Source: Lachnospiraceae bacterium (GTDB lineage Bacteria; Bacillota; Clostridia; Lachnospirales; Lachnospiraceae). Taken from it: 64,000 nt of DNA. The notes beneath the pieces were generated by a model, which had not been told where the DNA came from, ran no database searches, and saw only the letters and a list, made by a program, of their open reading frames with translations. The stretch is taken from positions 8,392 to 72,391 of the forward strand of contig JBNMLP010000008.1 of NCBI GenBank assembly GCA_050874905.1. The letters are read 5' to 3'. The position numbers and the translations under genes were made by a program. Positions 35,931 to 63,976 of the stretch are shown here, one piece after another; the stretch's first letter is position 1, and every line of letters begins with the position of its first letter.

Positions 35931-36977
35931 CTAGAAACACATTGGAAGTTGTGTCAAGCCTTCTGTTTCCGGAAGACCAAACATCAGATTCATATTCTGT
36001 ACCGCCTGCCCTGCAGCTCCCTTTACAACATTGTCCAATGCGCCCATCGCTACAATACGATTGGTACGTGTATCAATTTTAAAATTGACATCCACATAAT
36101 TGCTTCCCTGCACATATCTGGTTTCCGGCGGAACATCCTTTTTCAATACCCGGACAAACTTCTCCTGTGCATAATACTTATCGTATGCAGCACGCACCTG
36201 CTCATAGGTTACTTCTTCTTTTAAATTTGCATAAGCAGTAACCAATATACCACGGTTCATTGGAACAAGATGAGGCGTAAAGATGATCTTGATCTCCTCC
36301 CCGGCAGCATATCCTAACTGTTCTTCAATCTCCGGTGTGTGGCGGTGTGTCAATACTCCGTAGGCTTTCATATTCTCATTAACCTCACAGAACAGATTGG
36401 CAACCTTTGCCCCACGTCCTGCACCAGTTGTACCGGATTTGGCATCCACAATGATCGACTGTGGATCAATCAGATGCTCCTTTACCAGCGGATAAAGTGT
36501 CAAAATACTGCATGTTGTATAGCACCCCGGATTAGCAATCAATCTGGCATGTTTTACCTGCTCCCGGTTGATCTCGCAAAGACCATATACTGCCTCGTCA
36601 ATAAACTGCGGAGATTTATGCTCGATCTTATACCACTGCTCATAAGTCGCAACATCCTTGATACGAAAATCTGCGCTTAGATCGATCACCTTTGTATTTT
36701 TTAATACCTCTTCTGTTAAAATGCCTGCGCAGTACCCCTGTGGAGTAGCGGTAAAGACAACATCTACCTTCTGGCAAAGCTCCTCTATATTATCATCAAA
36801 ACAGGTATCTTCCACTACCTCAAACAGATTACGGAAAATATCTGCGTACTTCTGGTCTACATAACTTCTGGAACCATACCAGCAAATCTCAACCTCTTTG
36901 TGCTGTAACAATATTCTTACAATTTCTTCTCCGGCATAACCGGTTGCACCAATGATACCTGCTTTTATCATGGTCAT
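35931..36977 (-). CDS. argC: N-acetyl-gamma-glutamyl-phosphate reductase
   Basis: GATGYAG, IDLSADFR, ANPGCY, KSGTTGAG, DNVVKGAAGQA. Confidence 0.97.
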   Translation of the reverse strand: MTMIKAGIIGATGYAGEEIVRILLQHKEVEICWYGSRSYVDQKYADIFRNLFEVVEDTCFDDNIEELCQKVDVVFTATPQGYCAGILTEEVLKNTKVIDLSADFRIKDVATYEQWYKIEHKSPQFIDEAVYGLCEINREQVKHARLIANPGCYTTCSILTLYPLVKEHLIDPQSIIVDAKSGTTGAGRGAKVANLFCEVNENMKAYGVLTHRHTPEIEEQLGYAAGEEIKIIFTPHLVPMNRGILVTAYANLKEEVTYEQVRAAYDKYYAQEKFVRVLKKDVPPETRYVQGSNYVDVNFKIDTRTNRIVAMGALDNVVKGAAGQAVQNMNLMFGLPETEGLTQLPMCF

Positions 36978-62256: not shown

Positions 62257-62352
62257 AGTTGTTTCTCTCCTTTGTTTTATGGTGCAAAGCACCCAATTTT
62301 CCACAATTGGATTTATTATATCGTTTTTTCATCAAATAGTCAACGGGTGGCA

Positions 62353-63843
62353 TTATTGATGATAGTAAGAGAAAAATTCTTTCAATTTTCCCATTGCTTC
62401 CTCTAATACTTCGATTCTTGGAAGGAATACAATCCGAAAATGATCCGGTGCCCCCCAGTTAAAACCGCCACCGTGCACGATCAGCACTTTCTTTTCCTTT
62501 AACAGATCCAGTGCAAAACGCTCGTCATCATGAATATTGAACTTTTTCGTATCGATCTTAGGGAAAATATAAAATCCTGCTTTTGGCTTCACTGCAGAAA
62601 TACCCGGTATATCATTTAATGCCTTGGTAATAAATTCTCTCTGTTCATAAATGCGTCCGCCCGGCACGATATAATTCTGTACGCTCTGATAACCGCCCAA
62701 TGAAGTCTGCACAATCGACTGTGCCGGAACATTGGAGCAAAGACGCATGTTGCTTAACATATTGATTCCTTCAATATAATCCTTTGCCACTGCTTTGTTG
62801 CCGCTTAAGATCATCCAACCTACACGGAATCCGGCGATCATATGTGACTTGGAAAGTCCGCTGAAAGTCACGCAGAACAGATCCGGTGCCAATGAGGCAA
62901 TAGAAAGATGTTCTTCCCCATCCATTACCAGGCGGTCATAGATCTCATCAGAAAAGATCATAAGCTGATGTTCTCTTGCAATATCCACGATCTGCTGCAA
63001 TACTTCCTTTGGATAAAGGGCTCCGGTCGGATTATTCGGATTGATGATAACGATTGCCTTTGTACGATCCGTAATTTTCTTTTTGATGTCATCCATATCC
63101 GGATACCAGTCCGCATTTTCATCACACACATAATGTACAACTTTTCCCCCTGCAAGTGTTGCACAGGCAGTCCAAAGCGGGTAATCCGGAGCAGGGATCA
63201 AAATCTCATCTCCATTTTCCAAAAGAGCCGACATACTCAGATTAATCAGCTCACTCACCCCATTGCCAGTGTAAATATCATCAATTGATACATTTGGAAT
63301 ATTTTTAAGCTGAGCATACTGCATGATCGCTTTTCTTGCAGAAAACAGTCCTTTTGAGGCAGAATACCCCTCACAATCTGTCAACTGGTGGCTCATATCA
63401 TAGATCACCTCATCCGGTGCCCGGAATCCAAACGGAGCAGGATTACCAATGTTCAATTTTAGCACCTGAATTCCAGACTGCTCCATACGTGCTGCCTCAT
63501 CTACAACTGGTCCTCTCACATCATATAATACATGATCTAACTTTGATGACTTTTTAAACTCTCTCATACCCGATTCTCCTTTTTTTCTATCTTTTTCATT
63601 CTCTTCATATACTATGGCCGGTTCTTCCTCTGCTTTCAGCCACGCTTCGTCTACCTTTAATGTCTCTGCCAGAAAATGAAGCAGTTCCGCTCGTGGTACC
63701 GTTTTTCCACTCACATACTGGCTGATATGGCTTTTGCCAAGCTTTAAGCCTTTCTTTTCCGCCGCCCGGATCAAATCTACCTGTTTGATTCCCTGCTGCA
63801 ACATCGCCTGTTTCAAACGCATTGAAAATGTTTCTTTTTCCAT
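62353..63843 (-). CDS. alaA: XRE-HTH domain fused to AlaA/AlaT-type class I aminotransferase
   Basis: Residues 1-70 HTH (KSHISQYVSGK); from Met93 FKKSSKL...YDVRGP, LNIGNP, NPNNPTG, DEIY, GLSK...GFRVGW; single uninterrupted frame. Confidence 0.85.
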   Translation of the reverse strand: MEKETFSMRLKQAMLQQGIKQVDLIRAAEKKGLKLGKSHISQYVSGKTVPRAELLHFLAETLKVDEAWLKAEEEPAIVYEENEKDRKKGESGMREFKKSSKLDHVLYDVRGPVVDEAARMEQSGIQVLKLNIGNPAPFGFRAPDEVIYDMSHQLTDCEGYSASKGLFSARKAIMQYAQLKNIPNVSIDDIYTGNGVSELINLSMSALLENGDEILIPAPDYPLWTACATLAGGKVVHYVCDENADWYPDMDDIKKKITDRTKAIVIINPNNPTGALYPKEVLQQIVDIAREHQLMIFSDEIYDRLVMDGEEHLSIASLAPDLFCVTFSGLSKSHMIAGFRVGWMILSGNKAVAKDYIEGINMLSNMRLCSNVPAQSIVQTSLGGYQSVQNYIVPGGRIYEQREFITKALNDIPGISAVKPKAGFYIFPKIDTKKFNIHDDERFALDLLKEKKVLIVHGGGFNWGAPDHFRIVFLPRIEVLEEAMGKLKEFFSYYHQ

Positions 63844-63886
63844 TTTTGCGCTCCTTTCCGTTTCCTGTTTCTGATTGTAACACTTT

Positions 63887-63976
63887 GTTCAAAATAGTTC
63901 AATGTTTTTCTCTTACCAGTTCAATTATTTGCTTCAGAAAGTTCAACATAAGGAGTTGTGCCAACAAAAAGTTCAA
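63887..63976. repeat. Five direct GTTCAA repeats upstream of the HTH-alaA fusion
   Basis: GTTCAA starts at 63887, 63897, 63919, 63941, 63971 (four preceded by A). Confidence 0.8.

Follow-up and report, generated by a model that had tools for sequence, protein, structure and literature searches.

How does a housekeeping aminotransferase come to carry the DNA-binding head of a phage repressor, and what might the head do there? The question is raised by a gene on the reverse strand of a 64-kb stretch of a Lachnospiraceae genome (the whole of this stretch is called the window below), in which a domain of the Cro/C1 (XRE) helix-turn-helix (HTH) type is joined in frame, through a charged linker, to an AlaA-type alanine aminotransferase. 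We found that the fusion is old, that a Shine-Dalgarno (SD) sequence and start codon are conserved where a stand-alone AlaA would begin, and that the promoter of the fused gene is overlaid by repeats sharing their core with the half-site of the head's nearest characterised homologue. These comparisons suggest, with a probability that we put at roughly 65%, that the gene encodes an autorepressing trigger enzyme made in a long and a short form.

The head, linker and enzyme that the initial annotation of this DNA had placed in one frame are indeed found in a single 496-residue open reading frame, with Pfam matches to HTH_3 (PF01381, residues 10-69, 29.1 bits against a cut-off of 23) and Aminotran_1_2 (residues 126-484, E 6.5e-55). 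Residues 90-496 align gap-free to E. coli AlaA (PDB 4cvq, E 1.9e-175), with 61% identity over 404 residues, and the two proteins are collinear from Met1 of AlaA to the C-terminal YHQ. In the E. coli enzyme, catalysis involves Lys240, Tyr68 from the partner subunit, Tyr210 and Tyr333, and an N-terminal “plug” is formed by Tyr15, Ile17 and Arg18, followed by Gly19-Pro20 (PMC4094517). With an offset of 92, K332, Y160, Y302, Y425, Y107 and R110 of the fused protein correspond to AlaA K240, Y68* (the partner-subunit residue), Y210, Y333, Y15 and R18, while V109 stands at Ile17 and G111-P112 at Gly19-Pro20. The catalytic lysine and tyrosines and the plug motif are invariant in the alignment of 28 homologues in which this was judged. 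With a shallow alignment of 28 sequences as input, AlphaFold2 gave a poor model of the enzyme body (predicted local distance difference test (pLDDT) score 61 on average), and the enzyme assignment thus rests on the sequence match to 4cvq. The aminotransferase half, which had been described as apparently intact, does look so and is predicted to be catalytically active. The fused gene is the sole AlaA orthologue in the source genome of 2.54 Mb.

In the same AlphaFold2 model, the head consists of five helices (residues 6-17, 21-30, 37-45, 52-61 and 66-70; pLDDT 73-90) and is followed by a disordered linker (residues 73-91, pLDDT <50). The head matches the N-terminal domain of phage TP901-1's CI repressor (PDB 3zhm, E 4.4e-11), all its PDB matches (3zhm, 5a7l, 6tri and 3zhi) falling between E 4e-11 and 2e-10, and the recognition helix KSxxSQYV is kept between the two. 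It also matches the phage families phrog_2967 (“regulator”, E 1e-14) and phrog_4 (“repressor”). A captured repressor, already suspected from the sequence, is hence a fitting origin for a head that is a TP901-1 CI-type N-terminal domain. Across the 81 orthologous fused Lachnospiraceae loci that form the basis of most counts given here, the head has a mean pairwise identity of 67% versus 86% for the enzyme part, and the linker is 9-61 residues long, hypervariable, rich in E, G and K and unalignable between genera. The orthologues are related, but a linker that cannot be aligned shows that neutral sequence has been replaced many times. A search with the head only, against 1.84 billion representatives, gave 235 matches at E ≤1e-10. 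The short matches inspected (16 of 150 listed) proved to be truncated or frameshifted copies of the fused gene and not stand-alone repressors. The matches also include proteins with three to seven CI-like HTH domains in tandem (P0149, 640 aa; P0261, 479 aa; P0155, 374 aa), which represent another way to offer several heads to repeated sites.

Is the fusion a recent accident? The initial annotation had left room for a recent read-through and had asked whether relatives carry a stop codon in the linker. A full-length search of 5.8 billion protein clusters matched at least 8000 scored candidate clusters; the best 120 are 65-97% identical and 485-574 aa long, and at least 118 of them span at least 98% of the query. 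When one genome per species was scanned, 566 loci matched, the best 80 being mostly labelled Lachnospiraceae. Carriers include candidate species of Blautia, Mediterraneibacter, Anaerostipes, Anaerobutyricum, Eisenbergiella and Roseburia, as well as Fusicatenibacter and others. Full-length similarity was the criterion for picking these best 80 of 566 loci, and it favours fused genes. The unbiased set is an even sample of 121 Lachnospiraceae genera, which places unfused genes outside the fused clade: AlaA was found in 37 of the 121 genera and is fused in 13 of these 37 (12 by full query coverage and one, L084, on inspection). Among 300 genomes of the class, just 3 of the 38 AlaA-matching genomes besides the query carry the fused form. 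No stop codon interrupts the linker in the 81 Lachnospiraceae loci, in three Coriobacteriia loci or in ten Coriobacteriia proteins. Split versions, with a head gene and a stop followed by alaA, were also sought, and the unfused relatives were found to have no head and unrelated sequence upstream.

In a maximum-likelihood tree of the enzyme domain, the 82 fused sequences all fall into a single clade (support 99/91), which is nested within unfused Lachnospiraceae AlaA, represented by 19 sequences. In a joint tree, the fused Coriobacteriia proteins (Parolsenella, Thermophilibacter) form their own clade (100/100), sister to the Lachnospiraceae fused clade (98/91), and the two together (95/64) are again nested in unfused Lachnospiraceae AlaA. 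The simplest history would be one fusion in Lachnospiraceae, then one transfer to Coriobacteriia; an independent fusion in Coriobacteriia, also considered, is unsupported by the joint tree. With one old clade, thousands of sequences, two phyla and a linker stop in no relative examined, the fusion is conserved and the notion of a recent read-through is rejected. The neighbours of the gene are housekeeping genes that differ between species. The fused gene on one contig filed under Tidjanibacter massiliensis (Bacteroidota; locus L011) is almost the same as the one in a Fusicatenibacter metagenome-assembled genome (MAG; L081), and several MAGs labelled “Oscillospiraceae” or “Acutalibacteraceae” fall inside the Lachnospiraceae clade. 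These cases are probably binning or labelling errors and not transfers.

The point at which a normal AlaA would begin had been placed at the ATG at 63567, and M93, encoded there, does align with AlaA Met1; unfused relatives start at the equivalent Met. The internal SD proposed to precede it is also present, with its AGGAG core at 63580-63576, at a distance of 8 nt and not the 9 nt first given. The codon aligned with M93 is ATG in 75 of the 81 orthologues, GTG in two, TTG in two, GTT in one and AGA in one, and in both TTG loci a further ATG, preceded by a GGAGG of its own, lies three codons upstream. An SD core (AGGAGG, GGAGG, AGGAG, GGGGG or similar) is found in 74 of 81 loci and ends 7-8 nt from the start in 72 of these 74. 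It occupies all three codon phases and encodes more than 20 different peptides (GG, GE, GD, L-E-A, E-R-K and T-E-D among them). Because the SD is kept across frames and differing peptides, selection appears to act on the nucleotides, not on the protein. Pairing of the 17 nt before the internal start with the anti-SD sequence averages -9.2 kcal/mol in the 81 orthologues, compared with -8.8 kcal/mol at the true N-terminal starts and -2.6 at 36,638 other codon positions of the same genes; a value of -7 kcal/mol or lower is reached by 89% of internal starts versus 4% of the background. In the seven codons before the internal start, 76% of Gly codons are GGA and 2% GGC, against 38% and 34% in the enzyme domain, and the folding energy of the 60 nt around it is -4.1 kcal/mol versus -11.3 in the enzyme domain and -6.1 at the first start. 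In the three Coriobacteriia loci, at 66% G+C, GAGGGAG, AAAGGAG or GGGGGAG ends 6-8 nt before the ATG.

These observations point to selection on the internal SD and start codon for internal initiation, and a head-less AlaA, the short form, is probably made from this start as well. A consensus scan found no conserved sigma-70-like promoter between the two starts (6 of 81 loci with scattered matches versus 20 of 81 in control stretches), so the short product would come from the same mRNA. The internal start has been lost in two loci, L072 and L076 (GTT or AGA, with no SD), and in two proteins, P0184 and P0201. In L076 the long form must then be the enzyme, since this locus has no internal start; it retains five operator sites and should make the long form only. 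L072 has also lost most of its array.

What could the head bind? Upstream of the gene, five TTGAAC copies lie within 90 bp, all on the gene's strand, with spacings of 30, 22, 22 and 10 bp (Table 1), and no further site was found upstream of site 1, past the window end. The window holds 33 TTGAAC copies, fewer than the 48 obtained from shuffles. In motif counts covering the entire 2.54-Mb genome, this is the only place with at least three TGAACT within 45-bp steps, and nowhere else do two TTGAACT occur within 80 bp. The genome has no second cluster of the extended motif that would indicate a wider regulon; its four weaker [AT]TGAAC triplets either fall in coding sequence or are without the flanks. 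Elsewhere (contig C7:18419-18440), three intergenic direct repeats of GTTCATAA, spaced by 9 and 12 nt, have a related core and flanks unlike those of the alaA operator.

TTGAACT occurs in the 250 nt upstream of 79 of the 81 fused orthologues, with 251 copies in total and four in most orthologues (consensus aaaTTGAACTTtt), while none of 19 unfused relatives carries a TTGAAC-type array upstream. Site spacings across orthologues peak at 11-12, 19-21, 30-31 and 41-43 bp, that is, at whole helical turns. One site forms the -35 element of a promoter with a 17-nt spacer in 62-65 of the 81 orthologues; of 65 such loci, a copy lies just downstream of the -10 element in 58, and copies lie upstream in 52. 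The three Coriobacteriia loci (L103:1240-1503, L104:1240-1503 and L105:1240-1503) have TGAAC/GTTCA copies in both orientations round their promoters, and these AT-rich sites (TTGAAC/GTTCAA) stand out in DNA of 66% G+C. The half-site of TP901-1 and phi13 CI was determined experimentally as AGTTCAYR (PMC8516035; PMC4941734; PMC7250872). Operator OL (AGTTCATGAAACGTGAACT) and the half-site of OR (AGTTCACG) are examples of it, and binding is abolished when C is changed to G in its core (PMC4941734; PMC7250872; PMC8516035). The TGAACT of the array is the six-base core of its reverse complement, YRTGAACT, with AT here in place of YR. In a subclade (L015, L017, L039 and L058), the recognition helix reads GKSQ.SQY..GK[AS] and not GKSH.SQY..GKT, and the sites are mostly ATGAAC and not TTGAAC. 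This may be co-variation of head and operator; it is suggestive and represents a single evolutionary event. From four independent lines, namely the co-occurrence of head and array, the uniqueness of the array in the genome, its helical phasing and its core identity with the proven site of a homologue, we consider that the fused head most likely binds the array. Because of the positions of the sites, repression of the gene's own promoter would most likely be the effect.

Together, these results would fit the following mechanism. The cell's only AlaA-type alanine aminotransferase would carry the head of a TP901-1-type phage CI repressor. [quoted passage not shown] In TP901-1 CI, the isolated head binds weakly, while binding to paired half-sites is cooperative when two heads are joined (PMC4941734); the AlaA body might then substitute for CI's own dimerisation domain. 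The two heads would bind helically phased TTGAAC(T) half-sites over the -35 element, the spacer and, in most orthologues, the transcript start, and their loose tethers would tolerate direct repeats one to four turns apart, as argued for MocR (PMC5320631). Once the -35 element, spacer and early transcribed region were occupied, the promoter would be shut and the enzyme, through its own level, would restrain its further synthesis, resulting in negative autoregulation of a housekeeping enzyme. From the same mRNA, the strong ribosome-binding site and ATG at the old AlaA start would yield head-less enzyme as well. The two isoforms proposed at the outset, the longer one a DNA-binding trigger enzyme, hence find strong comparative support in the conserved SD and start, the intact enzyme and the operator array.

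Two extensions of this mechanism are speculative. Short and long subunits may form one-headed mixed dimers, weakening repression. In E. coli AlaA, the plug of the N-terminal arm orders only with substrate bound (PMC4094517), and substrate-dependent ordering of the arm, which here bears the tether, could make repression respond to alanine, pyruvate or glutamate. Combined, they would give a self-measuring circuit of dimers with two, one or no heads, of which only the two-headed ones would hold the sites tightly, so that occupancy would report the enzyme level together with the alanine/pyruvate/glutamate or pyridoxal phosphate (PLP) state. We put this forward tentatively and consider it rather doubtful.

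Several points weigh against an autorepressing enzyme made in two forms. The internal start is not indispensable, as the four sequences without it show; the long, variable and disordered linker argues against tight allosteric coupling of enzyme and head; the sites are mostly direct repeats, while the usual targets of XRE heads are inverted repeats, bound by compact dimers, so that a flexible-tether model is needed; and the orthologue counts ignore kinship, the 81 loci being related and not 81 independent trials. The same four losses would suit a gene from which only the full-length protein is made, its SD and ATG being kept as a folding pause or for a structural Met, and ribosomes arriving from the upstream start would in any case partly mask the internal site. 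A pause, however, needs no start codon at a fixed distance of 7-8 nt, and where the ATG is replaced, it is mostly by GTG or TTG, both of them capable of starting translation too. Around the start, G+C is low and folding weak, as is typical of initiation regions, and this goes beyond even the true first start. Nor does Met1 of AlaA have a known structural role, a 26-residue tag before it being tolerated in the crystal structure. We regard a full-length-only product as unlikely. Even less probable is that a repressor gene was joined to alaA only lately by read-through, or merely appears joined through an artefact of assembly or sequencing: all that speaks for this is the presence of an internal SD and ATG, and it has to face the same uninterrupted frame in thousands of independent assemblies, complete genomes and isolates, the single old clade, and short HTH matches of which those inspected (16 of 150 listed) turned out to be broken copies of the fused gene. 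We give it practically no credence.

The array, too, could be read otherwise: it might be bound by another factor, or the head might activate or have other targets, and the upstream sites, at -20 to -50 from the -35 site, could in principle recruit polymerase. Yet the array goes with the fused head only (79 of 81 versus 0 of 19) and is unique in the genome, its core is the same as the proven half-site of the nearest characterised homologue, sites at the -35 element and downstream of the -10 element are a repressor layout, and the subclade with the H-to-Q change in the recognition helix has mostly ATGAAC sites. We judge such a role to be quite improbable. The aminotransferase body might instead be a sensor of the MocR type, no longer enzymatic and devoted to ligand sensing, which is how the known HTH-aminotransferase fusions MocR, GabR and PdxR work (PMC5320631). 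A body that has 61% identity to E. coli AlaA and no variation at any catalytic residue, evolving more slowly than its head (86% versus 67% mean identity) and encoded by the only AlaA gene of its genome, makes this very unlikely. Autorepression by an active enzyme, produced with and without its head, accounts best for the evidence as we weigh it. The features on which this reading is based are collected in Table 1.

Table 1 Features of the fused gene and its upstream region (window coordinates), with T-box leaders of unfused relatives (locus coordinates)
Feature	Position	Strand	Basis or remark
Full-length open reading frame, predicted long isoform (HTH, linker, AlaA), 496 aa + stop	62353..63843	-	Single open frame
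Cro/C1 (XRE) HTH domain, TP901-1 CI type, residues 1-70	63634..63843	-	Pfam, PDB, PHROG, AlphaFold2
Disordered charged linker, residues 71-92	63568..63633	-	pLDDT <50
Internal Shine-Dalgarno AAAGGAG, 8 nt 5' of internal ATG	63576..63582	-	Sequence
Internal in-frame start codon ATG (M93), aligned with stand-alone AlaA Met1	63565..63567	-	4cvq alignment
AlaA-type glutamate-pyruvate aminotransferase domain, residues 93-496, predicted short isoform	62353..63567	-	PDB 4cvq
Codon AAG, PLP-binding lysine K332, motif SGLSKSH	62848..62850	-	Aligned to AlaA Lys240
Shine-Dalgarno AAGGAG of N-terminal start	63851..63856	-	Sequence
-10 hexamer TACAAT with TG extension	63874..63879	-	Promoter TTGAAC-17-TACAAT
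Putative operator site 5, TTGAAC, within promoter spacer	63887..63892	-	
Putative operator site 4, TTGAAC = -35 hexamer	63897..63902	-	
Putative operator site 3, TTGAACT	63919..63924	-	
Putative operator site 2, TTGAACTTT	63941..63946	-	
Putative operator site 1, aaaTTGAACTTTTT	63971..63976	-	
T-box leaders	L086:958-1204, L098:1243-1508, L101:1247-1486		Rfam RF00230

Unfused Lachnospiraceae relatives use other leaders, three of them T-box: in three other genera, the unfused alaA is preceded by a T-box leader (121-127 bits), the specifier of which, by our reading of the alignment, would in all three be GCA (alanine), the codon after a conserved GAA. In these relatives, where the head is absent, the enzyme would thus be under tRNA-Ala control, and the way in which this one gene is controlled differs between lineages, a context that favours a regulatory role. 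Outside the window, some 4.5 kb upstream of the fused gene, the aptamer of a glycine riboswitch (Rfam RF00504 at 53.9 bits; L002:10796-10891 (-), genome C8:76795-76890) precedes an open reading frame of 472 aa that resembles a sodium:alanine/glycine symporter. On the other side, aspS lies directly downstream; its own near-consensus promoter, TTGACT-17-TATAAT (window 62315-62343 (-)), begins 10 nt past the alaA stop, and no terminator-like hairpin was found between the two genes. An operon with aspS was considered and rejected, as aspS is next to the fused gene in just 3 of 76 loci and has this promoter.

Alanine aminotransferase connects the pyruvate, glutamate and alanine pools, and the fused form is the only AlaA of many Lachnospiraceae that are abundant in human and animal guts, and of Coriobacteriia. 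Databases name the protein [quoted passage not shown] or “alanine-synthesizing transaminase” and, since they name the aminotransferase only, its regulatory half is invisible in annotation. If our reading is true, the gene provides a compact, portable example of an enzyme acting as its own repressor, a natural in-frame internal start that may set the ratio of DNA-binding to non-binding subunits, and a phage repressor head domesticated for a housekeeping control that relatives entrust to a T-box riboswitch. It predicts two products, a core site of 6 bp and an operator of roughly 130 bp. The self-measuring circuit, if true, would be a catalytically active counterpart of MocR built on a domesticated phage repressor head.

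We found no description of an XRE-AlaA fusion in the literature, and the comparison with known systems can be made part by part. E. coli AlaA (YfbQ, PDB 4cvq) has the same catalytic Lys and Tyr residues and the same N-terminal H1-plug-H2 arm but no DNA-binding domain, and its gene is, as Kim, Schneider and Reitzer are said to have reported in 2010, controlled in trans by Lrp. Trigger enzymes with a DNA-binding domain of their own reportedly include PutA, BirA and NadR (an account of Commichau and Stulke from 2008). In archaea, RbkR is both catalytically active in metabolism and a repressor of genes in the pathway to which it belongs (PMC5397151). In all four, head and enzyme are of other kinds than here, and their ligand dependence is established. 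We know of none among them that co-produces a head-less isoform from an internal start. Genes giving two isoforms in one frame include those of ClpB, IF2, CheA (long and short) and the Tn5 transposase and its inhibitor; the short Tn5 form, without the DNA-binding end, poisons the long form via mixed oligomers. The fused gene has, like these, a second in-frame ribosome-binding site and start, its two products being predicted.

The N-terminal HTH is homologous to that of TP901-1 CI (and of staphylococcal phi13), with the same half-site core AGTTCA/TGAACT, and CI, too, requires two tethered heads, one by itself binding weakly (PMC4941734, PMC8516035). In contrast to CI, the helical-hook dimerisation and hexamerisation domains are replaced by AlaA, the half-sites are mostly direct repeats and not an inverted pair, the flanks read AT-TGAACT-T as against YR-TGAACT, and the gene lies outside a prophage and without a MOR partner. 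With MocR, GabR and PdxR, in which the aminotransferase body of an HTH-aminotransferase fusion acts as sensor and which are often autoregulated from operators that are often direct repeats spaced by whole helical turns (PMC5320631), the protein shares an N-terminal DNA-binding head, a flexible linker and a dimeric PLP-fold body. It differs from them in its Cro/C1 (XRE) head, theirs being a GntR-type winged HTH; in its AlaA orthologue with all catalytic residues, theirs being a degenerate sensor; and in its internal start for a predicted head-less form and its own gene as the only predicted target. The contrast with MocR/GabR drawn in the initial annotation, on head and enzyme alike, was correct: the Pfam scan of the fused protein gave HTH_3 and HTH_19 only and no GntR winged HTH (PF00392). 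Thus, with the MocR-type head lacking and the C-terminal half of CI absent as well, the fused protein belongs to neither the MocR nor the CI family.

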